Notes under the pieces: generated by a model | Databases searched by the model: none | Told to the model about the DNA's origin: nothing | What the model saw: the letters and a program-made list of their open reading frames with translations, nothing else | Shown here: one piece after another, positions 15,929 through 63,549 of the stretch | Numbering within the stretch: position 1 is the stretch's first letter | How the letters are laid out: the number at the start of each line of letters is the position of its first letter | Source of the DNA: Phycisphaerae bacterium | GTDB taxonomy: Bacteria; Planctomycetota; Phycisphaerae; FEN-1346 | DNA: 63,645 nucleotides | Assembly: GCA_046483505.1 (NCBI GenBank) | Contig: JAWODB010000309.1 | Location: forward strand, 1-63,645 | Direction: 5' to 3' | Made by a program: the position numbers and the translations under genes

Positions 15929-15954
15929 CGCGGCGGGTCTCCGTACCCGCCGCG
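15929..15954. repeat. REP-like hairpin (family B)
   Basis: CGCGGCGGGTCTCCGTACCCGCCGCG; many copies in the window. Confidence 0.85.
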
Positions 15955-15971
15955 GTCCGGTTTGATTCTGC

Positions 15972-16118
15972 TGTCATTCTGAGCAGGCCGTGAGGCCGAC
16001 GAAGCCTGCCCCGAGCGAGGCGAAGCCGAGGCGAACGGGAATCTCGCCCTGGTCTTTGCCTTCTCTTTTGTCGCACGGCGAGATTCTTCGGCCCCGCAAG
16101 CGGGGCCTCAGAATGACA
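15972..16118. repeat. Palindromic element family A with a nested 35-bp insert
   Basis: TGTCATTCTGAG...GACGAAG[16005-16039]AATCTC...GAGATTCTTC...CTCAGAATGACA. Confidence 0.85.
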
Positions 16119-16153
16119 TCATGAGCCACCCGCCAACGCGCCGATACAACCCG

Positions 16154-18148
16154 CTACGCCTCCTCCGGCGCCGGCCGGAGCCGCTTCTCCGCGATCTCCG
16201 TCTTGGCCCGGTCGATGAACGCTTCGAGGCCGTCGGCCCCCAGGTCGCCGCGGGCCTTGTCGCGGACGCTGACGGTGCCGGCCCCCTCCTCCTTCTCGCC
16301 GACGATCAGCATGTACGGGATCTTGCGGAGCGTGGCCCGGCGGATCTTGGCCCCGACCTTCTCGCTGCCGTCGTCCAGTTCGGCCCGCAGGCCCGCTTCC
16401 TTCAAGGCATCGAGCACCGTCTCGCCGTAGGCGTTGAACTTATCGCTCACGGGCAGGACGGCGGCCTGGACGGGCGCCAGCCACAGGGGGAAGTCGCCCC
16501 CGTAATGCTCGATCAGGATACCCAGGAACCGCTCGATGCTCCCCAGGATGGCCCGGTGAATCATCGCCGGCCGGTGCTCGGTGTTGTCCCGGCCCACGTA
16601 GGTCAGGTCGAACCGTTCGGGCATGGCCAGGTCGACCTGGATCGTCCCGCACTGCCACGACCGGCCGAGGCAGTCGCGGATGTGGTAATCGATCTTCGGG
16701 GCGTAGAACGCCCCCTCCCCCTCGTTGACCGTGTAGTCCATGCCGCACGTCTCCAGCGCCCCGCGGAGGGCCCCGGTGGCGTGCTCCCACATCTCGTCCG
16801 TGCCGATGGAATGTTCCGGGCGGGTCGAGAGTTCCACCCGCACCTGGTCGAAGCCGAACGTCCGGTAGATCTCGTCCACCAGCCGGATGACGCCCACGAC
16901 CTCGTCTTCCAACTGCTCCGGCAGGCAGTAGATGTGGGCGTCGTCCTGCGTGAACTGGCGCACCCGCAGCAGCCCGTGCAGCACGCCGCTCTTCTCGTGC
17001 CGGTGCACCAGGCCCAGTTCCGCCACTCGCATCGGGAATTCGCGATACGAATGCTTCGTGTTCCGGTAGACGAGCAGCCCGCCGGGGCAGTTCATCGGCT
17101 TGACGGCGAACGCCTCGTCGTCGATTTCCGTGAAGTACATCGCCTCGCGGTAATTATCCCAGTGCCCGCTCCGGTGCCACAAGGCCTCGCTCAAAATGGT
17201 GGGCGTGCGGATTTCCTGGTACCCGGCCTCGGCGTGCAGCCGGCGCCAGTATGCCAGGATCTCGTTCAGCACGCGCATGCCGGCGTGATGCATGAACGCA
17301 AAGCCCGGCCCCTCCTCGTGAAAACTGAACAGGTCCAGGTCCTTGCCGATACGGCGATGGTCGCGTTTGGCGGCCTCCTGGCGGCGGGCGAGGTAGTTCT
17401 TCAGGTCCTTCTCCGAGAAGAACGCCGTCCCGTAAATCCGCTGGAGCATCGGGCGGGTCTCGTCGCCCCGCCAGTAACTGCCCGCCACGCTCAGCAGTTT
17501 GAACGCGGGGATGCGGCCGGTGTCGGGAATATGCGGCCCGCGGCACAGATCCGTGAACCCCCCCGTGTGGTACAGCGTGACGGTGCCGTCCGGCGCGGGC
17601 TTGGCCTCGGCGCGGTCGACCTGCTCGCCCTCGACGGGACCGGCGGCGGCCATGTCGCGGAGGAGTTCCACCTTGTACGTCTGGCCCTCGGCCTCCATCC
17701 GGACGCGGGCGTCCCGGAGCGTCACCGCTTCCCGCTCGAACGGGGCCGCCTCGGCGATGATCTCGGCCATTTCCTCTTCGATGCGGGGCAGGTCGTCCTC
17801 GGCCAGGCCGCCGGGCACCTCGAAATCGTAATAGAACCCGTCCTCGATGGCCGGGCCGATGCCGAAGCGCACGCCGTCCCCGAAGAGGCGGCGCACCGCC
17901 GCCGCCATGACATGAGCCGTGGAGTGGCGCAGAATCGAGAGGGCTTCGTCGCTTTTGTCGGTCAGGATCTCCACCTCCGGCGTCCCGTCATCGGGCACCG
18001 GGGCCGACAGATCCACCGACTTGCCGTTCAGCCTGGCAGCGACGGCGGCTTTAGCCAGGCCTGAACCGATGCGTTTGGCAACGTCCGCGACGCATGCCCC
18101 ATCGGCCACTTCCAGCGTATCGCCATCAGGAAGTCGGACCGTAGGCAT
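16154..18148 (-). CDS. thrS: Threonine--tRNA ligase
   Basis: TGS domain, LRHSTAH, DLCRGPH, KRDHRRIG, KPMNCP, RVRQFTQDDAH, IHRAILGSIERF; start taken at MPTVRLPDG. Confidence 0.98.
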   Translation of the reverse strand: MPTVRLPDGDTLEVADGACVADVAKRIGSGLAKAAVAARLNGKSVDLSAPVPDDGTPEVEILTDKSDEALSILRHSTAHVMAAAVRRLFGDGVRFGIGPAIEDGFYYDFEVPGGLAEDDLPRIEEEMAEIIAEAAPFEREAVTLRDARVRMEAEGQTYKVELLRDMAAAGPVEGEQVDRAEAKPAPDGTVTLYHTGGFTDLCRGPHIPDTGRIPAFKLLSVAGSYWRGDETRPMLQRIYGTAFFSEKDLKNYLARRQEAAKRDHRRIGKDLDLFSFHEEGPGFAFMHHAGMRVLNEILAYWRRLHAEAGYQEIRTPTILSEALWHRSGHWDNYREAMYFTEIDDEAFAVKPMNCPGGLLVYRNTKHSYREFPMRVAELGLVHRHEKSGVLHGLLRVRQFTQDDAHIYCLPEQLEDEVVGVIRLVDEIYRTFGFDQVRVELSTRPEHSIGTDEMWEHATGALRGALETCGMDYTVNEGEGAFYAPKIDYHIRDCLGRSWQCGTIQVDLAMPERFDLTYVGRDNTEHRPAMIHRAILGSIERFLGILIEHYGGDFPLWLAPVQAAVLPVSDKFNAYGETVLDALKEAGLRAELDDGSEKVGAKIRRATLRKIPYMLIVGEKEEGAGTVSVRDKARGDLGADGLEAFIDRAKTEIAEKRLRPAPEEA

Positions 18149-18232
18149 CGTCTTGTGCGTCCGGCCGGGGGTGCCCCGCTCCGGACGGGTGTCCTCCATG
18201 CTGATCGTGGATTCACCGATGAATGCGGACAA

Positions 18233-18261
18233 AGCATACGGCCGGCGGGGCCGCCTGTCAA
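18233..18261 (-). promoter_or_regulatory. Putative sigma70 promoter of thrS
   Basis: TTGACA-17 nt-TATGCT on the minus strand. Confidence 0.7.
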
Positions 18262-18288
18262 GCGCTTTCGGGCCTCACCGGCCTCCGG

Positions 18289-18714
18289 TCAATCGCGGTG
18301 GGCGGGCGGCGAGACCTGAGTGGCGGCGTCACGGGTCAACTCGGCCACCTCGTACCCGCGTTCTCGCCACACCCGACGGTCACGGTCGAGGCGGGTCTTC
18401 AGTGCCGCGATATCCTTCTCCAGGGCGTTGAGACGCTCCTGGGTCTTGCGCACCTGGTCGCCTCGGTGCAGGCCGTGCGGCGGGGCGAGGTCGCCCGCCT
18501 CGTTGTGCGTCCAGCCCTCCTCCAGGAGTCCGGCCTTCAGGCGGCTGAGGTCGGCCTGCTTGGCGGCCAGTTCCTGCTGGGCCTCGGCGTGGTCCTTCCT
18601 GATCTCGCTCTTCGTCCGGCTGTCGCCTTTCATGGCCCGGACGTTGCACCCCGCGGCAAGGCACGCGGCGGCTGGCACCAGGACGCAAAGCGCCGTCATC
18701 CATCTCGTAGGCAT
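18289..18714 (-). CDS. Hypothetical coiled-coil lipoprotein
   Basis: GAGAGGAG RBS; lipobox LAAG|C; two heptad helices. Confidence 0.7.
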   Translation of the reverse strand: MPTRWMTALCVLVPAAACLAAGCNVRAMKGDSRTKSEIRKDHAEAQQELAAKQADLSRLKAGLLEEGWTHNEAGDLAPPHGLHRGDQVRKTQERLNALEKDIAALKTRLDRDRRVWRERGYEVAELTRDAATQVSPPAHRD

Positions 18715-18765
18715 CGCGGTGGCTCCTCTCGGCATTCGTGTCACGCGCGCGGCAACGGCCGGCGG

Positions 18766-19824: not shown

Positions 19825-19916
19825 CGGTCTGTCTCCTTTCGCTGCTGCGGCGCAGGGCGCGATGCCTATGCCCGCGCCCCTGGCCGTCCACCAGAAGACG
19901 GGCGCGGCCGCGCCGA

Positions 19917-23116: not shown

Positions 23117-23286
23117 ACTGATCCCGGCAAAAGTAATGTCCGGGGTTGTCATTCTGAGGAGCGGCGAAGCCGCGACGAAGAATCTCGCCTTGTCACCTTT
23201 CGCACGGCGAGGTTTTTCGGCTCCGCAAGCGGAGCCTCAGAATGACAGCCTGGCCCGATGAGGACATTACTTTTCCTGGGCTCAGT
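23117..23286. mobile_element. MITE-like element with ~25-bp imperfect terminal inverted repeats enclosing a family A palindrome (23147-23247)
   Basis: ACTGATCCCGGCAAAAGTAATGTCC (23117-23141) vs GGACATTACTTTTCCTGGGCTCAGT (23262-23286). Confidence 0.65.
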
Positions 23287-26333: not shown

Positions 26334-27218
26334 ATGCGCCGACGCTCACCACCGCCCACCCGCCCCGGCCTCCGCACCGCGTCCACGCGGCGACGGGTGC
26401 CGCGGACGGTGATGCTCCTGGCCGCCGTGGTGGCGCTTGCTGCGGTTGCGGCGTCGGACGCCGCCCAGCCGGCGGCGACGGGACCCGAGGCGGCCGCCGG
26501 GTCGGTCGACTACCCCCAGTCCCGCGAGGCGCTGGAGCCGGTCGTCCGCAAGGACCCGCTGGCGTTTCTTCAGCGCGCCCGCGACTGGGCCGACGGCCGC
26601 ATCCGCGATTACACCTGCCACTTCCAGAAACTGGAGCGCGTGGGCGGCAAACTCCAAAAGCCCGAGCAGATGCGGATGAAGTTCCGCGCCGAGCCGTTCA
26701 GCGTCTACCTGAAGTGGGTCGGCGGCCCGTCCGAGGGCCAGGAGGTCCTCTACGTCGAGGGCCAGTACAAGGGCAAGATCCAGGCCCATCCGTCCGGTAT
26801 CCTCGGGGTCATCTTCCGGAAGGTGGCGCTCGACCCCGAGGGCAAGATCGCCGTCAAGCACAGCCGCCGGCCCCTGACGAAGGCCGGCATGGTCAACATG
26901 GTCCGCCTCATCGCGCGGCAGTGCGAGGAGGCCCACGAGCGGGGCGACCTGACGCTCACCTACGAGGGCGTCCGGGTCGAGGCCGACCGCCCCGCCTTCG
27001 TCCTGAAACGCCTCCTGCCCCCCGACAAGGGCTACCCCTGCGAGACCCTCGTCATCTTCATCGACACCGAGACCCTGGCCTGCGTCCGCTCCGACGCCTA
27101 CGACTGGGACGGCGAACTCATCAGCCACTACTTCTATACGAACATCAACTTCACGCCCGGCCTGACGGACCGCGACTTCGACACCGACAACCCCGATTAC
27201 GGCTATCGCCTCTTCTGA
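26334..27218 (+). CDS. DUF1571-domain secreted protein
   Basis: DYTCHFQKLERVGGKL, MKFRAEPFSVYLKW, GQEVLYVEG, FDTDNPDYGY; start uncertain. Confidence 0.75.
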   Translation: MRRRSPPPTRPGLRTASTRRRVPRTVMLLAAVVALAAVAASDAAQPAATGPEAAAGSVDYPQSREALEPVVRKDPLAFLQRARDWADGRIRDYTCHFQKLERVGGKLQKPEQMRMKFRAEPFSVYLKWVGGPSEGQEVLYVEGQYKGKIQAHPSGILGVIFRKVALDPEGKIAVKHSRRPLTKAGMVNMVRLIARQCEEAHERGDLTLTYEGVRVEADRPAFVLKRLLPPDKGYPCETLVIFIDTETLACVRSDAYDWDGELISHYFYTNINFTPGLTDRDFDTDNPDYGYRLF

Positions 27219-27232
27219 GCGTCGTTGGAATG

Positions 27233-27517
27233 CCCTCTCCCCCGGCGGGAGAGGGTCAGATCGGGTATCGCAGCGACTCGTGCTTCGCAGCGGAGCACTG
27301 CTTTGTAGAGTAGCGGGTGAGCGTGATTGGGCTCCAGGCCACAAGCCTCAAGCCACAAGCCTCAAGCGACAACCCACGACAACGGCGCGCGGTTGTCGTC
27401 GTCTTTGCTTGCGGCTTGCGGCTTGGAGCCTTCGGCTTTCACCCTCACCCCTTCCCTCTCGCGCCTGCGCGGCCGAAGCCCGCTACGGCGGGCCAAGGCC
27501 CGTCAAGGGAGAGGGGG
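27233..27517. repeat. Cluster of palindromes: family F (27233-27255), family C-type heptamer arms (27338-27426), family F with nested insert (27442-27516)
   Basis: CCCTCTCCC..GGGAGAGGG; CACAAGCCTCAAGC/GCTTGCGGCTTG; 39-bp insert at 27461-27499. Confidence 0.8.
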
Positions 27518-27540
27518 GCTTGACGAAAGGGGTCCTCTCC

Positions 27541-28281
27541 GTGTTCGCTCGCGCCGAGGCCGTCCTGTTCGACATGGGCGGCACGCTGATCGATTACCCG
27601 CTGCCGAGTTGGCCCGTCATAGCCGGCCGGTGCGTGCAGGGGGTCGTCAGCGGCCTGGTGCTCGGCAACGAATCGGCCCTGCCGCCGGCCGCCACGGTGC
27701 CCGACCCCGCCCATGCGCCGTCGAAGCGTCCGTCGGACCCCGAGGGCGCCCTGCCGTACCGGGTGACGATGGCCCTTCGGCGCGTGGTCCGCAGCGTCAG
27801 CGGCCTGACGCTGCCGACGCTCGGCGAGATGTGCGCCCGTCCCCTGGTGGCGGAGGGGTCCGTCGTGCCCGGCGCGCGGGAGACCCTCGCCGTCCTCCGG
27901 GCCCGCGGGTACCGCCTGGGGCTCGTCTCCAACACGCCGTGGGGCACGCCCGATTACCTCTGGACGGGCCAACTCGAACGGTTCGGCCTGGCGGACTTCT
28001 TCGAGGTCGCCTGCTTCTCGAGCGACGTGGGGTTCCGCAAGCCGGACCCGCGCATCTTCCGGGCGGCGCTGCGGACGCTCGGCGTGCCGGCCGGCCGGGC
28101 CGTGTTCGTCGGCGACGAGCCGGAGGCCGACATCGGCGGCGCCCGGGCGGCGGGCCTGGCGTGCGTCTGGGTCGACCGCCATCACCGCGCCCCGCCCGAC
28201 CCGCCGGCCGACCTGGCGATCACCCGCCTCGAGGACCTGGACGACCACCTGCCCGGCGTGTCTGCAAGCGAAAACCATTGA
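27541..28281 (+). CDS. HAD-superfamily hydrolase
   Basis: VLFDMGGTL, LVSNT, RKPDPRIF, FVGDEPEADIGGA; start 27541 or 27520. Confidence 0.88.
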   Translation: MFARAEAVLFDMGGTLIDYPLPSWPVIAGRCVQGVVSGLVLGNESALPPAATVPDPAHAPSKRPSDPEGALPYRVTMALRRVVRSVSGLTLPTLGEMCARPLVAEGSVVPGARETLAVLRARGYRLGLVSNTPWGTPDYLWTGQLERFGLADFFEVACFSSDVGFRKPDPRIFRAALRTLGVPAGRAVFVGDEPEADIGGARAAGLACVWVDRHHRAPPDPPADLAITRLEDLDDHLPGVSASENH

Positions 28282-28306
28282 CACCCCCCGCCGGGTGCCC
28301 TAGCAT
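28278..28306 (+). promoter_or_regulatory. Putative sigma70 promoter
   Basis: TTGACA-17 nt-TAGCAT. Confidence 0.6.
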
Positions 28307-28440
28307 GGGCGATTCGACACGGGCACCTCGACGGGATCGTAAGATTGACGTGTTTCAAATAGTGGTCTACATGAGCACCGCTTTGCCCTGATCTCGGCGG
28401 CGGTGACGGGCAAGATCGACGTGCTCGGAGAAGTGGGCGG

Positions 28441-29604
28441 ATGAACAGAGTTACCGTCAGCACGGATGTTCTGCACTGGGCGGTCCACCGTTCGGGGCGG
28501 TCGCTGGACTCCCTCGCATCCCGACCCCAACTCCGGAGAGTTGAAGAGTGGGTGGCGGGTGAGACACGCCCCACGCTGCGCCAGTTGGAGAACCTGGCCA
28601 AGGCGACGGCGACGCCGTTCGGCTTTTTCTTCCTCGAAGAACCGCCCAAAGAGCGCCTGCCGGTTCCGTACTTCCGGACGCTCCGCAGCGACTCTCCGGA
28701 GGAACCCAGCCCGGACCTTCTTGAAACCATCCAGACGATGCAGCAGCGGCAGGCGTGGATGCGCGAGTTTCTGATCGAGGAAGGCCAAGAGCGCCTCCCC
28801 TTCGTCGCCGCGGCGCGGGCTGAAGAGGAGCGCCCGGCCGTCGCCGAACGCATGCGCAGGGCGCTGGGCGTTGGGCCGGACTGGGCTTCGAACCATCGGA
28901 CGTGGAGCGACGCGCTGCGCGCCCTGCGCGAGACAATCGATGAGGCAGGAATCCTCGTAGCCGTCAACGGCGTTGTGGGCAACAACACCCATCGGAAACT
29001 GGACCCGCACGAGTTCCGCGGTTTTGTGCTGGTGGACGAGTATGCGCCGCTTCTCTTCGTCAACGGGGCGGATGGCAAAGCGGCGCAGATGTTCACGCTC
29101 GCCCACGAACTGGCCCATGTGTTTTTCGGGAGCAGCGCGGCCTTTGACCTTCGCCAACTCATGCCCGCTGAGGACGACACGGAGCGGGTCTGTAACCAGG
29201 TGGCAGCCGAGTTCCTTGTTCCTGAACGGCTGATGCGCCAGGTGTGGCCGTCCGTTTCCGATGGCCCGGAGCCCTTCCAGCAGATGGCGAGTCGGTTCAA
29301 GGTTAGCGAGATCGTGGTGGCTCGCCGGGCCCTGGACCTGGGCTTGATTCGCAGAAACGAGTTCTTCGCCTTTTACGAGTCCTACCGGAGCGCCGAGAGG
29401 CGTACGACATCGCAACAGCCCTCCGGCGGAGACTTCTACGCAACGCAGAATCTACGCATCGGCCACCGATTTGCCAGGACCGTGGTCCGGGCGGCCAAGG
29501 CGGATCGGCTACTTTATTCCGAGGCTTACCGGCTGACGGGACTTTGGGGCAAGACTTTTGACGCCTACGCCGCTTCGCTCGGAATGGAGGGGCCGCGGCG
29601 ATGA
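28441..29604 (+). CDS. Xre-HTH + ImmA/IrrE-family metallopeptidase
   Basis: N-terminal W..GETRPTLRQLENLAK HTH; FTLAHELAH (HExxH); ERVCNQVAAEFLVP. Confidence 0.9.
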   Translation: MNRVTVSTDVLHWAVHRSGRSLDSLASRPQLRRVEEWVAGETRPTLRQLENLAKATATPFGFFFLEEPPKERLPVPYFRTLRSDSPEEPSPDLLETIQTMQQRQAWMREFLIEEGQERLPFVAAARAEEERPAVAERMRRALGVGPDWASNHRTWSDALRALRETIDEAGILVAVNGVVGNNTHRKLDPHEFRGFVLVDEYAPLLFVNGADGKAAQMFTLAHELAHVFFGSSAAFDLRQLMPAEDDTERVCNQVAAEFLVPERLMRQVWPSVSDGPEPFQQMASRFKVSEIVVARRALDLGLIRRNEFFAFYESYRSAERRTTSQQPSGGDFYATQNLRIGHRFARTVVRAAKADRLLYSEAYRLTGLWGKTFDAYAASLGMEGPRR

Positions 29605-30098
29605 ACGGCGGCAGGTACGTCCTGGATGCCAGCGTCTTCATCGAGGCGGCCCGTCGGTACTACGCTTTCGATTTCGCTCCCCGGTTCTGGGAAAGCCTCG
29701 TCGAGCAGGCCAAGGCTGGGCGTGTGATGAGCATCGACCGCGTGCAGGATGAACTTGAGCGAGGAAACGACGAACTCGCGATGTGGGCCAACGGGCGCTT
29801 CGGCAGTGCGTTCATGGCAACGGACGACTCGCAGGTCATTGATCGCTACCGGGAGTTGATGGAGTGGGTGCAATCACAAGACCAGTTTTCAGACGCGGCA
29901 AAAGCCGATTTCGCATCCAAGGCCGATGGATGGCTTGTGGCCTATGCAAGGGTGAACGGTTGTATGGTGGTAACCCAGGAGGTTATCAACCCCGACGTGA
30001 AGCGTAAAGTCCCGATCCCAAACCTTTGTGAGGCGTTTGATGTGCCTTGGATCGATACGTTTGCCATGCTGCGCAACCTGGGGATACGGTTTGCCTAA
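29601..30098 (+). CDS. DUF4411-family PIN-like protein
   Basis: YVLDASVFIEA, YYAFDFAPRFW, ADGWLVAYA, VVTQE, KVPIPNLC; ATGA overlap with the upstream gene. Confidence 0.85.
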   Translation: MNGGRYVLDASVFIEAARRYYAFDFAPRFWESLVEQAKAGRVMSIDRVQDELERGNDELAMWANGRFGSAFMATDDSQVIDRYRELMEWVQSQDQFSDAAKADFASKADGWLVAYARVNGCMVVTQEVINPDVKRKVPIPNLCEAFDVPWIDTFAMLRNLGIRFA

Positions 30099-30273
30099 AC
30101 CCAAACCCTAACTGGCACAACGTCACTCCGGGGGCATGTAGCGCAATGTAAGGGAATGTGTACTGGCACGGTGCGGATTCGCATCCCGGCCGGATAAGCC
30201 CACCGGGCCACACAAGGGCGGTCGCTTACGCAAGCCGTCCGGCGTAACGCAAACCATGATTGTGGAGGAACGT

Positions 30274-31368
30274 ATGGCTCACGACGTCACCCTCGTCACC
30301 GGCGACGGCGTCGGGCCGTCGCTGGCGGCCGTCACGCGCGACGTGGTCGACGCCACCGGTGTCGCCATCCACTGGGACGAGCAGGAGGCGGGCACCGACT
30401 GCCTCGAGCGGTACGGCACCCCCCTGCCCGAACCGCTCATGGAGAGCATCCGCCGGACGGGCGTGGCCCTGAAGGCCCCCGTCACCACGCCCGTCGGCAA
30501 GGGGTTCCGCAGCGTCAACGTGCACCTGCGGCAGACGTTCAACCTGTACGCGTGCCTGAGGCCGTGCAAGTCGTACCCCGGCGTGCGGTCGCGGTACGAG
30601 AACATCGACCTCATCGTCGTCCGCGAGAACACCGAGGACCTGTACGCCGGCGTGGAGTTCCCCAAGGGTGACCAGGCCACGCGCACACTCATCCGCACCA
30701 TCAACGATCTCTCGACGGACAAGAAGGTCGTGACGGGCGAGGACACCACCGGCATCAGCATCAAGCCCATCAGCGTGGAAGGGACCGAGCGGGTCCATCA
30801 CTTCGCCTTCCGCTACGCGCGCGAACACGGGCGGAAGAAGGTCACCACGGTCCACAAGGCCAATATCATGAAGCATTCCGACGGCCTGTGGCTGGACGTG
30901 GCCCGCAGCGTGGCCGAGGCGTACGACGACATCGAGTTCGAGGACCGCATCGTCGATAATATGTGCATGCAACTCGTCCAGAAGCCCGAACTGTATGACG
31001 TGCTCGTCCTGCCGAACCTGTACGGCGACATCGTCAGCGACCTGTGCGCGGGCCTGGCGGGCGGCCTGGGCGTGGCGCCGGGGGCGAACATCGGCGACGA
31101 GATGGCCGTCTTCGAGGCCACCCACGGCTCCGCCCCGAAATACAAGGGACTGAACAAGGTGAACCCGACGGCCCTGATCCTGTCGGGGATGCTGATGCTC
31201 GACCACCTGGGCGAGAAGGACGCCGCCCGGCGCCTCGAGGCGGCCGTCGCCGCCGTCATCGCCGAGGGCAAGGACGTCACCTACGACATGAAGCCGAACC
31301 GCGACGACCCGACGGCCGTCGGCACCCGCGAAATGGGCCAGGCGATTATCGAGAAGATGCAGGCGTAG
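30274..31368 (+). CDS. Isocitrate/isopropylmalate dehydrogenase family (probable isocitrate dehydrogenase)
   Basis: [52 protein letters not shown]. Confidence 0.92.
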
Positions 31369-31390
31369 ATTGCCGGCCGGCCCAACCGGA

Positions 31391-31510
31391 TGTCATTCTG
31401 AGGAGGCCGTAAGGCCGACGAAGAATCTCGCCGCGGTCGTCGCCGTTTTGCCGCTGGCACGGCGAGACCCTTGGCCCGCCTTCGGCGGATGAACTTCGCT
31501 CAGGGTGACA
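31391..31510. repeat. Family A palindrome with a nested CCCGCCTTCGGCGGATGAAC unit
   Basis: TGTCATTCTGAGGAGGCC...GACGAAGAATCTC...GAGACCCTT[insert]TCGCTCAGGGTGACA. Confidence 0.8.
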
Positions 31511-31556
31511 ACGTAAGAGGCCGGTGGCACCCCGCCCTCGCGTCGGAACGACGGGC

Positions 31557-32714: not shown

Positions 32715-33664
32715 TGCGTCAGCCCAAGCCGTACCCGCCCATCGACCTGGCGCGGCTGGAGACGTTTCCGATTAGCGAGCGGACGCACAAGGTGCGCCTG
32801 GCGGACCTGGCCCGTCCCGCCGGGGCGGACGCCACGCTCGGCGAGTTCGTCGCGTCCCTGCCCACCACGCCCGTGACGGACGGCCTGCGCGCCCTGGCCG
32901 CGGCCGTCGCCGACGCCGTCCGGGCCGACGCGCCGGTCGTGGCGGCGTTCGGCGGCCACGTGGTCAAGTGCGGCCTGGGGCCGATCCTGATCGACCTGAT
33001 GGAGCGTGGCATCGTGACGGCCGTCGCCACCCACGGCGCCGGCGCCATCCACGACGTGGAACTGGCGTTCCACGGCGAGACGAGCGAGGACCCCGCCCAG
33101 ACGATGCGCGACGGCCGCTTCGGCATGGTCCATGAGACGCCCGGTTACCTGAACGATGCGGCCCGCCTCGGGCGGCACCGCGGCCTCGGCCAGGCCGTCG
33201 GCGACCTGATGAACGAGGACCCGCAGGAGTTTCCGCACGCCGACCGCAGCGTCCTCGCCGCCGCCGCCCGCCTCGGCTGTACGGCGACCGTGCACGTCGC
33301 CATCGGGACGGACACCGTCCACATGCACCCGGAGGCGGCGGGGGCGGACATCGGCGAGGCCACCCTCATCGATTTCCGCAAACTCTGCGCCGTGGTGGCC
33401 GACATGGCCCGAGGCGTGTGGCTCAACCTCGGCTCCGCCGTCGTCCTGCCGGAGGTCTTCATGAAGGCGTACACGGTGGCGGCCAACCTCGGGGCGTCGC
33501 TCGACGGGATGACGACGGCGAACCTCGACCAGATTCAGCACTACCGGCCGCGGCAGAATGTCCTGTGCCGCCCGACGGAGCGCGGCGTGGCCCTGACCGG
33601 CCATCACGAGATCATGGTGCCGCTGCTCCGGCACCTCGTGCTGACGGAACTGGAGACGGAGTAG
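32714..33664 (+). CDS. Conserved hypothetical protein, possible deoxyhypusine-synthase-like fold
   Basis: GGHVVKCGL, HVAIGTDTVHMHP, NLGSAVVLPEVFMKA, TGHHEIM; translationally coupled to lpxK. Confidence 0.6.
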   Translation: MRQPKPYPPIDLARLETFPISERTHKVRLADLARPAGADATLGEFVASLPTTPVTDGLRALAAAVADAVRADAPVVAAFGGHVVKCGLGPILIDLMERGIVTAVATHGAGAIHDVELAFHGETSEDPAQTMRDGRFGMVHETPGYLNDAARLGRHRGLGQAVGDLMNEDPQEFPHADRSVLAAAARLGCTATVHVAIGTDTVHMHPEAAGADIGEATLIDFRKLCAVVADMARGVWLNLGSAVVLPEVFMKAYTVAANLGASLDGMTTANLDQIQHYRPRQNVLCRPTERGVALTGHHEIMVPLLRHLVLTELETE

Positions 33665-33675
33665 CAAAGGAGTCT

Positions 33676-33876
33676 TGCGCGGCGGGTCTCCGCACCCGCC
33701 GCGTGAATGTCATTCCGAGCGAGCGCAGCGAGTCGAGGAATCTCGCTGTTGGGCCGAGCAGCGGGGACGGTTGCCTGCTTGAACCCAACGACGAGATTCC
33801 TCCGCTCGGCCCTGCGGGCCTCGGTCGGAATGACATACGTAACGCACGCGCGGCGGGTACGGAGACCCGCCGCGCA
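33676..33876. repeat. Inverted pair of family B hairpins enclosing a family A palindrome (33707-33836)
   Basis: TGCGCGGCGGGTCTCCGCACCCGCCGCG...ATGTCATTCCGAG...GGAATGACAT...CGCGGCGGGTACGGAGACCCGCCGCGCA. Confidence 0.85.
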
Positions 33877-33893
33877 CAACCGCGAGGCGACAC

Positions 33894-42987: not shown

Positions 42988-43183
42988 GCCGTCGACCGAA
43001 GGTCGACGCGGCGCACGGGGCCCGTGAAACGGCAACGGCCGCCGACGCGTGAGTCGGCGGCTCAACGGGTCGCCAAGCGTTGCGCGGCGGGTCTCCGTAC
43101 CCGCCGCGCTTGAGCGCATACGTCCTGAAACGCGCGGTGGGTGCGGAGACCCACCGCGCTTCATCTTGGGGTCACCCACCGCG
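42982..43183. repeat. Family E palindrome (42982-43067) followed by family B hairpins
   Basis: CGTTGAGCCGTCGAC...GTCGGCGGCTCAACG (contains the plsY stop); B copies near 43082 and 43132. Confidence 0.8.
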
Positions 43184-46234: not shown

Positions 46235-46305
46235 GGGTGTCGTTGAGTTCGCGGCGTTTCGGGCTGCGCAGGGGCGCCGCACATTCTTGCTACGGCACGC
46301 GCGGC

Positions 46306-46371
46306 GCAAGCGCCGCGGCGAACAGAAGCGTTCATACGCGCGTCAACGTATGTGTTCGCCGCCCCGCTTGC
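46306..46371. repeat. Palindromic element between gatC and gatA
   Basis: GCAAGCGCCGCGGCGAACA...TGTTCGCCGCCCCGCTTGC. Confidence 0.65.
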
Positions 46372-46396
46372 GGGGCGCGTGCCTCTTGTATACGCC

Positions 46397-46699: not shown

Positions 46700-46732
46700 C
46701 GGAGTTCTCCGAGCGCAGGGGTACAGGCGCAT

Positions 46733-46806
46733 GTGCCCCGGCGGGTCTTGTCCCGCCGTGTTCTTCCCCGGTCGAACGCACGGCCGGGCAAGGCCGGCCG
46801 TGGCAC
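46733..46806. repeat. Family D double hairpin
   Basis: GTGCCCCGGCGGGTCTTGTCCCGCCGTG...CACGGCCGGGCAAGGCCGGCCGTGGCAC; near-identical to 47397-47470. Confidence 0.85.
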
Positions 46807-46844
46807 GGGGCGCGAGGAAGCGGGCGAGGGCGCGGCCGCGGCGG

Positions 46845-47102
46845 CTACGTCGATTCGACGGCCGGGCGCTTGCCGGGTTTCTTCACCTTGCCGCTGCGGA
46901 GGCACTGGGCGCAGATGCGCATCCGTTTGCGGGTGCCGTCCGGCAGTTCGACGCGGACGCGCTGAAGGTTCGGCTGGAACTTTCGCCGGCTGATGCCGGT
47001 GACCTTGCGTCCGACGCCGCCGAGGTACTTGGCCTTGCCGCGGCGTGTGATGGAGTTGCCCATCCGGCCGCCCTTGCCGCAGATTTCGCACTTCGCTGCC
47101 AC
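46845..47102 (-). CDS. rpmB: 50S ribosomal protein L28 (Cys4 zinc-ribbon form)
   Basis: CEICGK, GVGRKVTG, RKFQPNLQ, CAQCLRSG. Confidence 0.95.
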   Translation of the reverse strand: MAAKCEICGKGGRMGNSITRRGKAKYLGGVGRKVTGISRRKFQPNLQRVRVELPDGTRKRMRICAQCLRSGKVKKPGKRPAVEST

Positions 47103-47175: not shown

Positions 47176-47299
47176 GGGGATTTCGGGCGCGGCACATCAC
47201 CCGAGCCGGCTGCGGAAGCGGCCGGGCATCACCATCGGCCTTGGCACCTGCCATGGCGGATGAGGATGACCCGCCGCTCCCGGGGCGGGCTCGAACGGC

Positions 47300-47497
47300 G
47301 CGAGGCCTCGGTCGGAATGACAAATCGTGGGCACGGCCGGGCAAGACCGGCCGTGGCACAGCCCCGCCTACTCCTCCGCCGCGCCTAAGTCGGCATGTGC
47401 CACGGCGGGCCTTGTCCCGCCGTGTTCTACGCCGGCTGAACGCACGGCCGGGCAAGGCCGGCCGTGGCACGGGGCCTCTACTCTTCCGCCGCGCCTA
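47300..47497. repeat. Family A half-element, family D elements and a duplicated gene 3' end
   Basis: D arms at 47331-47359 and 47397-47470; CTACTC(C/T)TCCGCCGCGCCTA at 47368-47387 and 47478-47497. Confidence 0.8.
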
Positions 47498-49884: not shown

Positions 49885-49920
49885 GGCTGCCCTGCTGGTG
49901 CGTCGTAACGCCGACATTCC

Positions 49921-50448
49921 GCGCGGTGGGCCTCCCGGCCCACCGCGCCGACTGCTTCCGTCTCCCCTTTGCGCGGCAGCCTGGGAAGGCCGCCGCGCGG
50001 GAAATCGCGCCGCTGCCCTGGACCCTAGGCGCTCGGGCGCGGGCTGTCAACGGCAAAGCGGGACGCGGGTGCCACCGATTGCTTGTCAATCGGTGCTTCC
50101 CGTTCCCGGGACACGGTTTGACGAGCAAACCGTGGCACCCGCTTCACCCGTTGAGCCGTCGACGGTACGTCGACGGTCGGCCGCTTCGAGAAGTGCCCGG
50201 CTTCTCCCGTCGACCCTCGGTCGACGGCTCAACGCTCAGCACTCAACACGGGCGTGCGTCAGAATTCTCTGGCAAGCCATACCCGCGGCGGTGGCATGGC
50301 CACGCCCCGCGTGACCATGGGATTGGCGCGGCGGGCAGTCTTGCCCGCCGCGCGGTGCCCAAGACTGGGCACCGCGCGATATCGGCCTTACGAGACCTCA
50401 TGACCACCCGCCATGAAGCGGTGGCGCACCCCAACACGGGCGTGCGCC
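49921..50448. repeat. Dense cluster of family B, D and E palindromes in the divergent intergenic region
   Basis: B-like at 49921-49948 and 50326-50378; D-like at 50068-50140, 50271-50311, 50413-50448; E at 50149-50234. Confidence 0.8.
50022..50050 (-). promoter_or_regulatory. Putative sigma70 promoter of the Opu operon
   Basis: TTGACA-17 nt-TAGGGT on the minus strand. Confidence 0.6.
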
Positions 50449-50566: not shown

Positions 50567-53215
<2,649 letters not shown>

Positions 53216-53229
53216 TACCACCACACGAA

Positions 53230-53311
53230 CGCGCGGGCGGCGGGTCTCCGTACCCGCCGCGCCCTCGCACGAACGCTTTTCCCGCGCGGTGGGTGCGGAG
53301 ACCCACCGCGC
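53230..53311. repeat. Inverted pair of family B hairpins
   Basis: GGCGGGTCTCCGTACCCGCCGCG...CGCGGTGGGTGCGGAGACCCACCGCG. Confidence 0.8.
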
Positions 53312-53339
53312 CCTATGCTGTCATGGCGACGTCGCCGTA

Positions 53340-53813: not shown

Positions 53814-54033
53814 TGTCATTCTGAGGAGCCCGTAGGGCGACGAAGAATCTCGCCGTGGCCGTGTCGGTGCTGTGGCGCTTTGCCGTTGTCGTCCATCGGT
53901 CTTCTCCTTATGCCGTCTTTGCGGCTTGGCGCCCCACCTCCGGCGGGTAAACTTTGCGTGAGGCCTGTCGTTGCCGTTTTGCCGTCCGCACGGCGAGATG
54001 CTTCGGCCCTGCAAGCGCGGCCTCAGCATGACA
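53814..54033. repeat. Family A palindrome expanded by a nested family H element (53912-53964)
   Basis: TGTCATTCTGAGGAGCCC...GACGAAGAATCTC...[GCCGTCTTTGCG...CTTTGCGTGAGGC]...GAGATGCTTC...CTCAGCATGACA. Confidence 0.85.
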
Positions 54034-55971: not shown

Positions 55972-56070
55972 GAATGCGGAATTCGGATCGCGGATTTCGG
56001 ATTGGCGCATGAGACCGGCCCAGCAGCCCCGTGTGCCAATCCCAAATCCGAAATCCCAAATCCGAAATTC
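55972..56070. repeat. Family C-type heptamer inverted repeat
   Basis: GAATGCGGAATTCGGATCGCGGATTTCGGATT...AATCCCAAATCCGAAATCCCAAATCCGAAATTC. Confidence 0.75.
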
Positions 56071-56076
56071 CACGCC

Positions 56077-58888: not shown

Positions 58889-58897
58889 GCAGGAACG

Positions 58898-59257
58898 TGC
58901 CACGGCCGGTCTTGCCCGGCCGTGCATGTGGACTCCGCGTGGTGGGCCTCCCGGCCCACCGCGCGCGATGTGCGGCCGATGTGCGCCCCCAGCCGTTGAG
59001 CCGCCGACGGCACGTCGGCGGCCGTTCGGAAAACCTCTGGCCCATCGCGTCGCCCTGCGGTCGACGGCTCAACGGATGGGGTGCGTGGCCGCATATAAGA
59101 TAAAGCGCGGTGGGCAAGACTGCCCGCCGCGCAGATGCGCACAGATTCGAAGTAGAACACGGCGGGACAAGGCCCGCCGTGGCACCCGCCGCGCAAACTC
59201 ACACACACTCAGATACGTCACCCTCACGCCATCCGTCTCCCGTCACGGGAGAGGGAG
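58898..59257. repeat. Nested cluster D-B-E-B-D plus a family F element
   Basis: D arm 58898-58925, B-like 58936-58965, E 58993-59075, B-like 59106-59132, D arm 59158-59185, F 59221-59255. Confidence 0.8.
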
Positions 59258-59265
59258 ACAGTCGT

Positions 59266-59817: not shown

Positions 59818-59818
59818 G

Positions 59819-60331: not shown

Positions 60332-60365
60332 TCCGTCCGCCTTGCCTGGACGTTGGTTCACCCGG

Positions 60366-60476
60366 TTAACACTACAACGCTAAGTCGGCCATACCCACCG
60401 CGCTCGAAACGGCCTTTCCAGGGCTGGGCGGCGGGTACGGAGACCCGCCGCGCACGAGTTAGCGTTGTAGTGTTAA
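60366..60476. mobile_element. MITE-like element with perfect 18-bp terminal inverted repeats enclosing family B hairpins
   Basis: TTAACACTACAACGCTAA (60366-60383) / TTAGCGTTGTAGTGTTAA (60459-60476). Confidence 0.7.
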
Positions 60477-60525
60477 ACCCCCGGGTGTCGGGCAGGTACT
60501 GCAAAAAGGCGGGGAAGCCTCGGGC

Positions 60526-61185: not shown

Positions 61186-61348
61186 ATCGGCTCCGATCGC
61201 TCAGGAGGGACACCGACCGTATGCGTGTGGACTTCAGCCCTGGCGCAGGCGGGCGCCCCTTCGCTCGCGTCTTACTCTTTGATACGATTTGGCGGGCGGA
61301 TGTCCAGCAAAAAATCGCCCGCGTGTGCGGCTTGTCCGCTGTTCGGTT

Positions 61349-61526
61349 TTAACGCAGAGAGCGCGGAGAACGCAGAGTACGGCGGAGAACGACGACAGAC
61401 TGAGCACGCCGGAGGCGCTGCGTCAACATGCCATCCGCCGTTGTTATGCTTGCCTTTACTCAGCCTCCGCTTTTGCTGTTGCCCTGTCTATGCTTTCCTC
61501 TGCGTTCTCTGCGATCTCTGCGTTAA
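61349..61526. repeat. Nonamer-based inverted repeat element (family G)
   Basis: TTAACGCAGAGAGCGCGGAGAACGCAGAG...CTCTGCGTTCTCTGCGATCTCTGCGTTAA. Confidence 0.8.
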
Positions 61527-61579
61527 TAACGGAGGACCGGAGTCCTCCGCCCTTGCCACGGACGTTGCCGAGGCGTCGG

Positions 61580-62422: not shown

Positions 62423-62492
62423 GGTTCGTCCTCCCGGGGCGTGCGGTTCCGGATTGCCTTAAGTTGCCCGTCCGGCGGCACCGATACCGTCG

Positions 62493-62765: not shown

Positions 62766-62783
62766 CACATGTCGGTGGTCCTT

Positions 62784-62853
62784 TGTCATTTGTCATTTGT
62801 CCGCCGTTGCCGTCTTTGCGGCCCGCCTCCGGCGGGTGAACTTTGCGTGAGGC
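62784..62853. repeat. Heptamer remnant plus family H arm
   Basis: TGTCATTTGTCATTTG; GCCGTCTTTGCGGCCCGCCTCCGGCGGGTGAACTTTGCGTGAGGC (62809-62853). Confidence 0.75.
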
Positions 62854-62892
62854 ATGTCGTTCGCCGTTTGTCGTTGGCGCCGCGCACGCCAC

Positions 62893-62921
62893 TTGACGCC
62901 GCACCTGCCGTGTGACATACT
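62893..62921 (+). promoter_or_regulatory. Putative promoter of the toxin-antitoxin pair
   Basis: TTGACG-17 nt-CATACT with TGn extension. Confidence 0.5.
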
Positions 62922-62989
62922 TCGGGCGGCACGATGATCGGGCCGCACCTCTCGCGGCCCGCAAGCGGGCCGGGAAGGAGCGCATACGT

Positions 62990-63172
62990 ATGACGGTCAA
63001 AGAGCAGATGAAAGAAGTCATCGAGCATCAGCCCGACGACGCCACCTACGAGGAGATTCTGCGCGAACTGGCGTTTGCCGGGATGGTGGAGCGCGGCCTG
63101 GCCGATGCCCGGGAAGGGCGTGTCGTCTCGAACGACGAGATGGGCGAGCGGATTCGCCGATGGCAGAGATAA
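62990..63172 (+). CDS. Putative antitoxin (60 aa)
   Basis: AAGGAG RBS; QPDDATYEEIL...VERGLADAREGRVVS; overlaps the toxin start. Confidence 0.8.
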   Translation: MTVKEQMKEVIEHQPDDATYEEILRELAFAGMVERGLADAREGRVVSNDEMGERIRRWQR

Positions 63173-63452
63173 GGTGGACCCACGAAGCCGCTGCCTGGCT
63201 CGAAGACGTTCACGCTTACATCGCCGCGGACAACCCGGAGGCGGCTGCACGGGTCGTCCACGACCTGTTCGACCGCGTTCAGTCCCTCGCCGAGTTTCCC
63301 GAATGGGCTACGTCTATCGGACCGAACCGGAGGGCGACGTGCGCGTGCTGGTGCACGGGCATTACCGTATTGCCTACCTGGTCCGCGAGACGGATACGCT
63401 TGAGGTTCTCGGCGTCTTTCACGGCGCGCTGGACATCGACCGGTACCTTTAA
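63160..63452 (+). CDS. RelE/ParE-family toxin, one frameshift near 63300
   Basis: IRWTHEA...YIAADNPEAA...LAEFP then (other frame) RMGYVYR...YRIAY...VLGVFHGA; one C missing from a C-run. Confidence 0.85.
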
Positions 63453-63496
63453 CGGCGTTTCTCCCACCTCGAACGGCAACAGCCACGGCAACGGCG

Positions 63497-63549
63497 GCCT
63501 CACGCAAAGTTTACCCGCCGGAGGTGGGGCGCCAAGGCGCAAAGACGGC
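63497..63549. repeat. Family H arm, inverted
   Basis: Reverse complement matches 53912-53964 at 52 of 53 nt. Confidence 0.85.

Follow-up and report, generated by a model that had tools for sequence, protein, structure and literature searches.

Among the closest described counterparts of the repeats analyzed here are REP/REPIN-RAYT systems, known from Pseudomonas fluorescens SBW25, E. coli, Stenotrophomonas maltophilia, and Rhodopirellula baltica. They comprise GC-rich short hairpins in hundreds of extragenic copies, inverted doublets that fold as one long hairpin and, for each family, one Y1 HUH gene flanked by its own hairpins. A published study (PMC3733652) describes REPs "inserted within small palindromes" for T. 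roseum, A. variabilis, and H. neapolitanus, as well as REP variants with long self-complementary loops. Enterobacterial BIMEs are alternating-orientation mosaics of different hairpin subfamilies with recurring spacers. IS200/IS605 elements and their gene-less derivatives (PATEs), which insert 3′ of a tetra- or pentanucleotide, have hairpin ends and make no target duplication, and DDE-type MITEs are short, gene-less, high-copy units with terminal inverted repeats (TIRs). Finally, the name-giving PF05635 genes sit in stem-flanked 23S rRNA intervening sequences.

We analyzed 63,645 nucleotides of a Phycisphaerae bacterium (assembly GCA_046483505.1, contig JAWODB010000309.1; hereafter the window), in which a first-pass annotation had described at least eight families of short palindromes, A to H, inserted into one another. 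Direct reading of the seven stretches presented as nested found the palindromes as described, and their arms were recovered by an independent inverted-repeat scan (pairs I4, I5, I12, I13, I15, I19, and I22 of 106 in total). The A end 12-mer, with at most one mismatch, occurs 8 times in the window versus 0.11 expected, and none of 100 shuffles reached 8. Forty-two segments of the window, totaling 5,100 bases (4,053 within 15929 to 63549), each have at least five other genomic BLAST matches. Every family has a high copy number across the genome (counts on both strands: A end, 166; B 26-mer, 149; D 10-mer, 406; E 10-mer, 217; F 9-mer, 321; H 10-mer, 66); the commonest B 16-mer has 390 occurrences in the genome. 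The eight families are real, but their number exceeds eight, as 16-mers present at least 15 times form 117 overlap components. Likewise, palindromes lie within the range originally delimited, 15929 to 63549, but the same kind is also found outside, where inverted AATGACC-type heptamer arrays with a 50-nt spacer occupy 13522 to 13631 (class C; scan pair I7, also a TRF pair).

The best explanation as a whole, to which we assign a probability of roughly 60%, is that no fewer than three kinds of mobile palindromic DNA have accumulated intergenically, in part within each other. The first would be REP/REPIN-type hairpins (B, D, E, several unlisted families, and a 20-bp hairpin, M3), each family probably having a Y1 HUH enzyme of its own, encoded outside the window in the same genome, that mobilizes it in the form of single-stranded DNA. 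The second, family A, would be a ~100-bp pair of inverted, individually folding arms without target duplication. It would represent a pan-bacterial element in its gene-less state, other copies of which carry, between their arms, a gene for a small GIY-YIG nuclease of the UPF0213 type. The third would be inverted arrays of tandem 7- to 9-mers (C, G, and H), an architecture that also brackets PF05635 four-helix-bundle genes. Nesting may have followed two routes: modules of 19 to 35 nt would enter existing elements directly 3′ of a short NAAG, typically exposed in hairpin loops, and composites, after their formation, would be amplified as units.

Six PF01797 matches were found in the genome. Five of the proteins have a Y[IV]-x-x-NP motif and are RAYT-like, and one (HVH...YISNQ) is an IS200-like TnpA. 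Family-specific hairpins were read beside each of the six genes: those on C84, C104, C290, and C68 have hairpins on both flanks, one family per gene, that on C79 has two hairpins of another family downstream, and the C21 TnpA gene is flanked by GTAG-tagged hairpins and M3. No enzyme for D, E, or F was identified. The window itself holds no cognate enzyme, as first noted; the proposal that HUH (RAYT) enzymes spread the repeats fits the five RAYT-like and one IS200-like genes elsewhere in the genome but would not extend to family A, which goes with a GIY-YIG gene rather than an HUH gene. These repeats share with REP/REPIN-RAYT systems the hairpin type, copy number, doublets, and gene neighborhoods and, as described in PMC3733652, insertion in small palindromes and long-loop variants. 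They differ in scale, with 117 k-mer components and three-level nests; in having dedicated 19- to 35-nt modules almost only inside other families; in the extra 19- to 22-bp TIR of the B-REPIN; and in the GTAG tag, seen only beside the C21 TnpA gene and not on B, D, or E.

In the window, a single B hairpin (REP) at 15929 to 15955 has decayed copies at the same site in the relatives G002 and G003, and a B doublet (REPIN core) with a 22-nt spacer lies at 43082 to 43159. A palindrome with 39-nt arms at 46292 to 46386 belongs to an ACGCGCC-stem-CAAG-stem family, and a D hairpin cluster at 47189 to 47494 (arms, 47332 to 47470) includes a solo A end at about 47322. Same-genus relatives have empty sites, the presence/absence polymorphism that had been proposed as a check. 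Thus, the D-type hairpin pair at 46727 to 46825 lies in a 139-bp gap, whereas the corresponding gaps of G001 (67 bp) and G003 (69 bp) have no hairpin, and the B doublet at 53237 to 53309 lies in a ~118- to 124-bp insert between the H+-pyrophosphatase and rsfS genes, which overlap (TAATG) in G001, G002, and G014 (gap of 124 versus 0 and 0 bp). BIME-like mosaics occur upstream of the H+-pyrophosphatase gene at 49912 to 50383 (B variants, a D-variant doublet at 50054 to 50153, an E doublet at 50149 to 50234, and B2 variants at 50290 to 50383) and at 58897 to 59185, where D - B variant - E is followed symmetrically by E - B variant - D. Sub-blocks of the latter are found again elsewhere in the genome, and what had been called a D-B-E-B-D nest (58898 to 59185) is a recurring mosaic. 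In contrast to BIMEs, the units come from unrelated families, each probably with its own enzyme, and part of the clusters are symmetric about a center.

Part of the repeats are truly inserted within other families, and two nested insertions can be dated. The infC/thrS gap holds a family A double hairpin (15972 to 16118, starting one base 5′ of the motif given before), whose left arm carries a 35-bp module, M1, 3′ of GAAG on the + strand (16005 to 16039). The orthologous A of G002 and G003 lacks the module, with boundaries precise to ≤1 nt, confirming the suspected insertion. Similarly, the A element at 53814 to 54033, downstream of rsfS, has a central H-type heptamer array that is absent from the orthologous A of G001, as the reading of H inside A implied; this array itself carries M3 (about 53933 to 53952), making three levels. 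Ten of the 12 M1 copies share a single position within A arms, which represent three subtypes, and M1-type guests occur in five hairpin contexts, always 3′ of NAAG and in one orientation. Of the 39 copies of M3, 37 lie within members of four other repeat families and the remaining 2 flank the TnpA gene; within hosts M3 is always directly 3′ of NAAG and always followed by TT(N)G. It is found in the right arm of the A element at 31391 to 31510 (M3, 31475 to 31494), in place of which G003 has a B-type hairpin pair, and in an H-type heptamer array at 62796 to 62879 on the + strand (M3, 62822 to 62841).

A further guest is found at 27233 to 27540, a cluster wholly absent in G002 and G003 (gaps of 21 and 17 bp versus 325 bp), in which an F hairpin and inverted GCCACAA heptamer arrays (27338 to 27425) precede an F with a 39-nt guest in its loop (27461 to 27499). 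This guest resembles the long loops (45 and 48 nt) found in another two F hairpins and sustains the claim of a guest inside F. Loops fall into discrete length classes (6 and 30 nt in B, 6 and 31 in D, 3 and 36 in E, 5 and 45/48 in F), and 90 long-loop hosts in total belong to families otherwise short-looped. Neither M1 nor the F guest has a significant fold of its own. Loop targeting is not general, since M3 breaks up one strand of the stem in the GGTGGCATG family and is placed between tandem units in H. Some elements do lie inside others, as had been proposed, but the small guests follow NAAG and are not always in the apical loop. NAAG alone is too common a motif to account for their confinement to repeats. 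The fixed orientation of M3 and M1-type guests to a short motif, the lack of target duplication, the hairpin ends, and the M3 copies around the IS200-like TnpA gene recall IS200/IS605 elements and PATEs; the differences are that M3 is just 20 bp, that its hosts are other repeats, and that we infer the target rule and the enzyme here.

The Russian-doll appearance may, however, be mostly not hairpin-targeted: a few chance insertions, or mere neighborhood, would have made composites that were then copied whole, in which case nesting frequency says little about target choice. Several arrangements favor this account, which we nevertheless hold to be rather doubtful. A unit of the form TIR-B-spacer-B-TIR, with terminal repeats of 19 to 22 bp, is exactly 130 bp in 31 of 42 pairs, and 9 others are exactly 24 nt longer, the guest being always in the same B hairpin's loop. 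The supposed B inside an 18-bp TIR element (60366 to 60476) is a copy of this constitutive unit, shortened to 111 bp by the loss of 19 bp from one B hairpin. The supposed A inside a TIR element at 23117 to 23286 is a composite of a 25-bp outer inverted repeat and A (23147 to 23247) that recurs at least five times in the genome, and no TIR pair was found without A. B-A-B and B-E-E blocks also recur; the B hairpin, A (33708 to 33835), and inverted B hairpin at 33676 to 33876 are such a mosaic, although their site is empty in G001 (gap of 39 versus 259 bp), with the right half conserved in G002. H and related heptamer arrays, a single host type, account for about 13 of the 39 M3 copies. Each host family has its own guest subtype, which together with the recurring composites means that few independent insertions followed by amplification could explain most nested copies. 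Against whole-composite copying as the main cause, M3 is in four unrelated host families, M1-type guests follow NAAG in five contexts, M1 is at the same base in three A subtypes, and a single lineage shows M1 inserted into an orthologous A that was already in place. Moreover, hairpin loops make up about 1.1% of non-coding space (an approximate figure from rough gene calls), and even four to five independent events all falling in repeats would be unlikely by chance.

Family A has 114 complete pairs in the genome, with a modal length of about 100 bp. In the approximately 385 arms, the inner 5-mers are perfectly complementary in 271, across 8 variant 5-mers, versus 78 on average and at most 97 in shuffled pairings; the fold z is -6.1 (DNA parameters). 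Target duplication was found to be absent in 84 of 114 elements, the same as with shuffled flanks. The infC/thrS element has orthologues in G002 and G003, so that three species keep A at this site, and that between rsfS and argS is present in two species, the G001 orthologue measuring 113 bp. The arm motif was found in at least 129 stretches with record titles from more than 15 phyla, and A ends are most numerous in G002 (362). Family A and the 130-bp unit resemble DDE-type MITEs, but A is devoid of target-site duplication, its arms covary as internal hairpins, and no related DDE insertion sequence was seen here.

A GIY-YIG ORF lies between A arms in the same-genus relatives G001 and G003 (PF01541 domain, 54 bits), the protein being closest to solved UPF0213 proteins (PDB 1zg2 and 1ywl). 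The same arrangement is found in a Gracilibacteria record, with a protein 56% identical to that of G001, and both ORFs have the same RDSSLRSE-stop inside the arm; that arm sequence supplies the last codons and the stop in two phyla points to a unit of long standing. At 80 metagenomic loci of homologues, arms flank both sides in 44 and one side in 24, versus 0 and 2 in reversed control sequences. The suggestion that similar motifs flank GIY-YIG genes elsewhere was correct for both relatives, the Gracilibacteria record, and the metagenomic loci. Weighing against the preferred explanation, only 4 of 401 genomes sampled from the phylum had the G001-type protein, in each case with in-frame stops; no small GIY-YIG gene was found in this genome (89% complete) despite its approximately 385 arms, and the small GIY-YIG gene of G002, the relative richest in A ends, is not within A arms. 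A patchy cross-phylum distribution, fitting a selfish gene, and the GIY-YIG domain are shared with free-standing homing endonuclease genes, the domain also with UPF0213/YhbQ-like small proteins. Homing endonuclease genes are not known from a position like that of the A-arm gene, between hairpin arms that also occur as hundreds of gene-less copies, and our literature search turned up no publication that connects palindromic repeats of bacteria with GIY-YIG genes.

It is unlikely, in our estimation, that HUH (RAYT or IS200-like) enzymes move all families including A, with the GIY-YIG gene as a passenger or a separate selfish cassette favoring A-arm gaps. Such a scheme would agree with the lack of target duplication and the REPIN-like inverted hairpins of A, with an A element ~420 bp from the C21 TnpA gene, and with the A arms of this genome, where no small GIY-YIG gene was found. 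Small GIY-YIG genes of G021 lie beside duplicated tRNA 3′ ends, which is also compatible with that scheme and indicates that other contexts are possible for such genes. However, A arms bracket none of the six Y1 genes, at least one arm is present at 68 of 80 homologue loci versus 2 of 80 controls, and arm sequence forms the ORF end and stop in two phyla.

Families C, G, and H are built of tandem 7- to 9-mers arranged as inverted arrays. In the window, such arrays include CGGATTT heptamers with a 34-nt spacer in the gap between argS and the next gene (55977 to 56072) and GCAGAGAAC-like nonamers with a 98-nt spacer (class G; 61344 to 61531, scan pair I1). Ten of the 13 PF05635 four-helix-bundle genes of the genome are between long inverted repeats (TRF). 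Similar motifs had been suggested to flank such genes; the flanks here are heptamer arrays and not A arms, and no DUF559 gene, for which the same had been suggested, was found in this genome. As in the 23S rRNA intervening sequences, the genes are between long inverted repeats; unlike there, the arms are tandem arrays with a unit that differs among copies, the genes occupy ordinary intergenic gaps, and many array palindromes are gene-less (115 pairs have a spacer of ≤150 nt, and the units are GC-poor in about half of these).

That the elements function chiefly as structured RNAs (as terminators, processing sites, or regulators) under RNA-level selection, with spread and nesting secondary, is very improbable. 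In favor of this view, compensatory variation within A arms is strong, A is kept at infC/thrS and rsfS/argS, and predicted folds are stable; against it, the folds were computed with DNA parameters only, single-strand DNA substrates predict hairpin conservation equally, no Rfam family reached threshold in a scan of the window, hundreds of copies lie in unrelated gaps with empty sites in sister species, and transposase and nuclease genes are neighbors.

Under the preferred reading of piled-up mobile palindromes, the intergenic gaps of this genome are densely filled with many small hairpin-forming repeat families. Most families go with known hairpin-cutting transposases, and one widespread family, A, goes with a small GIY-YIG nuclease gene.

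The assembly (G000; 4.82 Mb, 352 contigs, 69.7% G+C, 89% complete) contains the window as one whole contig, with the housekeeping genes infC, thrS, rsfS, argS and that of an H+-pyrophosphatase. No tRNA genes were found in it, and no Rfam family matched within it at gathering score. We read all seven stretches that the first-pass annotation had listed as nested repeats; they are as described, and an independent inverted-repeat scan recovered the same arms. The end 12-mer of family A, a double hairpin of ~100 bp, occurs eight times in the window with at most one mismatch, against 0.11 expected. Forty-two window segments (5,100 bases) each have at least five further BLAST matches in the genome, and genome-wide counts showed every family motif to be high-copy beyond the window, the commonest 16-mer of the REP-type family B being present 390 times. 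The proposal of at least eight families was sound as to their reality but too low, as the 16-mers that occur at least 15 times group into 117 overlap components, and these into perhaps 15 or more families and superfamilies. Genes were delimited by rough calls of our own, from which non-coding space was derived. Contigs of three public DNA runs covering the stretch end at repeats, and the joints have 21 to 33 letters on their shorter side.

The usual picture of REP-type repeats is of a single family per genome served by a single RAYT, a Y1 HUH enzyme, and their nesting has received only passing mention. A stem-pair scan (perfect stem of at least 9 bp, loop of 3 to 8 nt) gave 2,364 hairpins genome-wide, 1,769 of them in stem families with at least 10 members. 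B and the other simple hairpin families are short, imperfect, high-copy and mostly extragenic palindromes, as in REP/REPIN-RAYT systems. The genome has six matches to PF01797 (Y1 HUH), none of which lies in the window, bearing out the earlier statement that no cognate enzyme is encoded there; the enzymes are encoded elsewhere. Five of the six have a RAYT-like Y[IV]-x-x-NP motif, and the match on contig C21 (91 bits) has IS200-like HVH and YISNQ motifs. Hairpins of B lie on both sides of the Y1 gene of C84, those of the variant B2 on both sides of that of C104, and the genes of C290 and C68 are each bracketed by one further hairpin family, so that these four genes are flanked by their own hairpins as RAYT genes are. 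The Y1 gene of C79 is followed, on one side, by two hairpins of another family. GTAG-tagged hairpins (GGTAG-CCCCGG) bracket the C21 TnpA gene, together with, likewise on both sides, copies of M3, a 20-bp hairpin found as a guest in other repeats; other conserved tails were seen on B, D and E. No enzyme for families D, E and F was found among the PF01797 matches of the genome. Y1 genes are widespread in the lineage: matches number 0 to 11 per genome, and 36 of 41 relatives have at least one.

Several of the arrangements first described as nestings proved to be standing composites. The terminal inverted repeat (TIR) of the element at 60366-60476, into which B had been thought to be inserted, defines 42 pairs in the genome. 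Since 31 of the 42 share an exact 130-bp layout of TIR, B hairpin, 22-nt spacer, second B hairpin and TIR, B is the constitutive core of a REPIN-like unit and not a guest. The window copy is only 111 bp long because 19 bp of one B hairpin have been deleted. Another nine of the 42 measure exactly 154 bp, and it is always the same B hairpin whose loop holds a 24-nt guest. The B doublet has a predicted fold of -35.8 kcal/mol (z = -7.2), and the 42 pairs thus show the inverted doublet with a short spacer, folding as one hairpin, of REPINs. Likewise, the supposed insertion of A into a TIR element (23117-23286) is a composite that recurs at least five times, and every repeat pair found contained A. 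The D-B-E-B-D series recurs as a block, as does A between inverted B arms, although the B-A-B site is empty in the same-genus relative G001; both are best called BIME-like mosaics rather than nestings. In G002, another relative of the genus, a run of N (withheld or masked bases; L170:~2270-2370) interrupts the orthologous B-A-B region, which is therefore not comparable.

Pairing of left and right ends yielded 114 complete A elements of 97 to 220 bp (mode ~100) and 191 unpaired ends; a looser pattern gave 385 arms. Each arm is a hairpin supported by covariation: in 271 of the 385, the 5-mer after TGTC is perfectly complementary to that before CTCG, against 78 on average and 97 at most in shuffled pairings, and eight different complementary 5-mers are used. 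The two arms of a single element can differ. The predicted fold of a 101-nt copy reaches -32.7 kcal/mol (z = -6.1). We observed no target-site duplication, as 84 of the 114 pairs share no flanking base and 24 share one, compared with 80 and 22 for shuffled flanks. The possibility that A is a MITE derived from a DDE transposase was rejected on this ground. The orientations of A centers and of M3 relative to gene strands gave small counts, and the A measure favored one contig strand overall, which cannot be biological.

Exact A ends number 122 to 362 in the four genomes from this genus; two genomes of a second genus have 66 and 22, the rest of the family has 0 to 7, and 19 of 20 genomes of other families have none. 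The arm motif, a pattern of 11 + 8 fixed bases, reaches much further and is pan-bacterial: at least 129 stretches contain it, and their record titles name more than 15 phylum-level groups. Among the 80 of these at least 129 stretches that were read, many are laid out alike, with a spacer between a left and a right arm, and the complete architecture of A is present in one Anaerolineales record. The frames flanking these cross-phylum arms (150 of 332 scanned, from the same 80 stretches) are ordinary genes and one GIY-YIG gene.

GIY-YIG genes do occur between A arms. In G001, a 115-aa GIY-YIG ORF (L177:1495-1842) lies between two left and two right A arms, the outer right arm containing M3; in G003, a third relative of the genus, a 122-aa homologue (L178:1495-1863) lies between left arms and one right arm; and in a Gracilibacteria record, such an ORF (L067:826-1155) lies between A-type arms, its product being 56% identical to that of G001 across phyla. 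In all three, the right arm includes the stop codon and the eight codons before it (RDSSLRSE). These loci have the structure proposed for the parent of A, namely a GIY-YIG ORF with a left-type arm upstream of it and a right-type arm downstream. N runs interrupt the left arms of the G003 element (L178:1332-1430), and this region is not comparable. The three proteins score 54.0, 53.5 and 59.4 bits against PF01541 (gathering cut-off, 22.6), and residues Y4, Y7, Y17, R26, R27, H31, E64 and N83 are invariant in their alignment, as expected of the GIY-YIG superfamily; by analogy with I-TevI, the invariant Tyr, Arg, His, Glu and Asn are presumably catalytic. The closest solved structures are the UPF0213 proteins 1zg2 and 1ywl. 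NCBIfam gave no family for the three proteins, two of which were scanned with out-of-frame coordinates.

The association was also seen in metagenomes. A scan with the GIY-YIG alignment returned at least 600 pattern matches, of which 555 were confirmed, and arms were sought by structure only (GTC-N5-GA, then the complement of N5). Among the best 80 of the at least 555 loci, 44 had both arms, 15 only an upstream arm, 9 only a downstream arm and 12 none, while reversed control sequences gave none with both arms and two with one. The suggestion in the first-pass annotation that similar motifs flank GIY-YIG genes was borne out by the three elements and by the 68 of those best 80 loci with at least one arm. 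Its counterpart for DUF559 genes was not, no DUF559 having been found in G000. Several findings speak against a simple version of this link. Matches to the G001-type protein occur in only 4 of 401 sampled genomes of the phylum, all with in-frame stops. No small GIY-YIG gene was found in G000, an assembly that is 89% complete and breaks at repeats; its sole PF01541 match is a 658-aa open frame, which we take to be UvrC. G002, the genome richest in A ends, has a different small GIY-YIG gene (L179), not within arms and immediately following an apparent tRNA 3' end. In G021, a further relative with small GIY-YIG genes, one of a different type (L181:380-850) is bracketed by directly repeated copies of a tRNA 3' end. 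The tRNA 3' ends at L181 and L179 suggest a second integration route for GIY-YIG cassettes.

Two nested insertions are polarized by comparison with relatives. G000, G002 and G003 share an orthologous A element between infC and thrS, and the 35-bp module M1 (16005-16039), claimed as an insertion into A, is present in G000 only, with boundaries precise to 1 nt or less; it is a dated insertion into a pre-existing A. Of 12 copies of M1, 10 occupy one base of A arms of three subtypes. The second case, an H array inside A (53814-54033), also held: the element downstream of rsfS is 220 bp long in G000, with an H array in its center that itself carries M3, making three levels. The G001 orthologue measures 113 bp, with an identical left arm and at an equal distance from the start of argS; the corresponding gap in four other genera is 39 to 58 bp.

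The placement of the guests suggests a simple rule. By hand count of the 39 copies of M3, heptamer arrays (H and others) hold 13, the apical loops of two CAAG-loop families account for 10 and those of A arms for 9, a further 5 sit within a stem strand of one other family, and the last 2 adjoin the TnpA gene. All 37 nested copies are followed by TT(N)G, that is, preceded by NAAG on the other strand, and M1-type guests directly follow GAAG or CAAG. Both therefore show insertion in one orientation 3' of a short motif and without duplication, as in the IS200/IS605 family. No gene turned up beside M1-type guests. The possibility that M1 and the F guest are independent hairpins was rejected, as neither has a significant predicted fold. 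At least one module is present in 26 of the 114 A pairs (M2 in 13, M3 in 10, M1 in 6 and a fourth type in 3, tallied by eye from a listing). Loop lengths fall into discrete classes, with 90 long-loop members in otherwise short-looped families, and related guests begin with GCCTG or GCATG. As hairpin loops make up ~1.1% of the rough non-coding space, guests reside inside repeats far more often than random placement would give. However, the copies do not represent independent events: every host family carries a guest subtype of its own, and composites are found repeatedly.

Families C, G and H belong to a different class, that of inverted tandem arrays of 7- to 9-mers. All 13 PF05635 four-helix-bundle genes of G000 (loci L007-L014 and L167, e.g., L167:337-630) lie between such arrays, and the array unit differs at every locus. 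TRF confirmed the inverted arrays at 10 of the 13; of the remaining three, two lie at contig ends, and the arrays of the third have diverged but can be made out by eye. The suggestion that four-helix-bundle genes are flanked by similar motifs needs amending here, as their flanks hold heptamer-type arrays rather than A arms. Like PF05635 cassettes, C, G and H consist of inverted 7- to 9-mer arrays around a gene or a short spacer. Gene-less palindromes with short spacers, at first described as heptamer and nonamer arms, are frequent, and four lie in the window (13522-13631, 27338-27425, 55977-56072 and 61344-61531). H is a CTTTGCG-type array whose 12-mer signature has 58 copies, often in inverted pairs and adjoining other arrays. 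A nonamer-array palindrome occupies the gap between rsfS and argS in another genus. Heptamer arrays on contigs C225 (L164:~300-560) and C311 (L165) also enclose a conserved non-coding element of ~240 nt and low G+C; its seed k-mer occurs 29 times, and two copies gave only a chance-level miRNA match in Rfam. It may be an RNA gene of a new kind or another cargo of array palindromes.

Synteny is kept around the pyrophosphatase gene in seven relatives, and over much of 14 to 56 kb in the three same-genus genomes, where orthologous gaps revealed the predicted presence/absence differences. The gap at 27216-27540 (325 bp) is 21 bp in G002 and 17 bp in G003; that at 33635-33893 (259 bp) is 39 bp in G001; that at 46712-46850 (139 bp) is 67 bp in G001 and 69 bp in G003; and that at 53213-53336 (124 bp) is 0 bp in G001 and G002, where the two genes overlap as TAATG. 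At 31363-31538, an A element in G000 faces a B-type pair in G003. By these comparisons, some elements are old copies maintained by vertical descent and others were gained in particular lineages. Gains occur in relatives too, as the G002 gap (L168:~2160-2283) opposite 15017-15058 is 82 bp longer and holds a hairpin that G000 and G003 lack. Two larger differences were noted. The segment 18166-23292 (5.1 kb), which holds several genes, is missing from the syntenic position in G002 and G003, and only 393 and ~909 bp separate the blocks on either side there; its right border abuts the TIR + A composite at 23117-23286. The gap of ~2 kb between rough gene calls at 28258-30255, 292 bp in G003, represents either missed genes or a lineage-specific segment.

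The most probable scheme joins these observations as follows. RAYT and TnpA enzymes would move simple hairpins and M3 as single strands, guests would enter after NAAG where the strand is exposed, a GIY-YIG nuclease would act on A arms, and the composites would then be amplified. In a bolder reading, A would be the non-autonomous form of a pan-bacterial palindromic element, whose autonomous copies encode a small UPF0213-type GIY-YIG nuclease that would act on extruded arms and whose frame ends in the right arm. Together with HUH-driven REPs entering exposed strands after NAAG, this would make hairpins preferred landing pads and produce multi-level nests across enzyme classes. We hold this bolder reading tentatively, at roughly one chance in three.

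REPINs inserted into REPINs are already noted in a passage of one report (PMC3116915), and REPs inside small palindromes in a passage of another (PMC3733652); on the strength of these passages, the nesting idea itself is not new. What is new here is the depth of nesting, the dedicated guests and the GIY-YIG link. We found no description of an A-type element class in the literature, and literature searches returned nothing linking GIY-YIG genes to bacterial palindromic repeats. The small UPF0213-type GIY-YIG family has solved structures and, to our knowledge, no assigned function. In practice, repeats of this sort fragment metagenome assemblies (352 contigs here) and give rise to spurious ORFs, and cataloguing them helps annotation. 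Orthologous copies with and without an inner module make the order of insertion readable. The observations also suggest a simple target rule, by which guests would insert after NAAG where strands are exposed. An arm motif of many phyla tied to a small GIY-YIG family would give that family a role, and bacterial palindromic repeats a second enzyme class.
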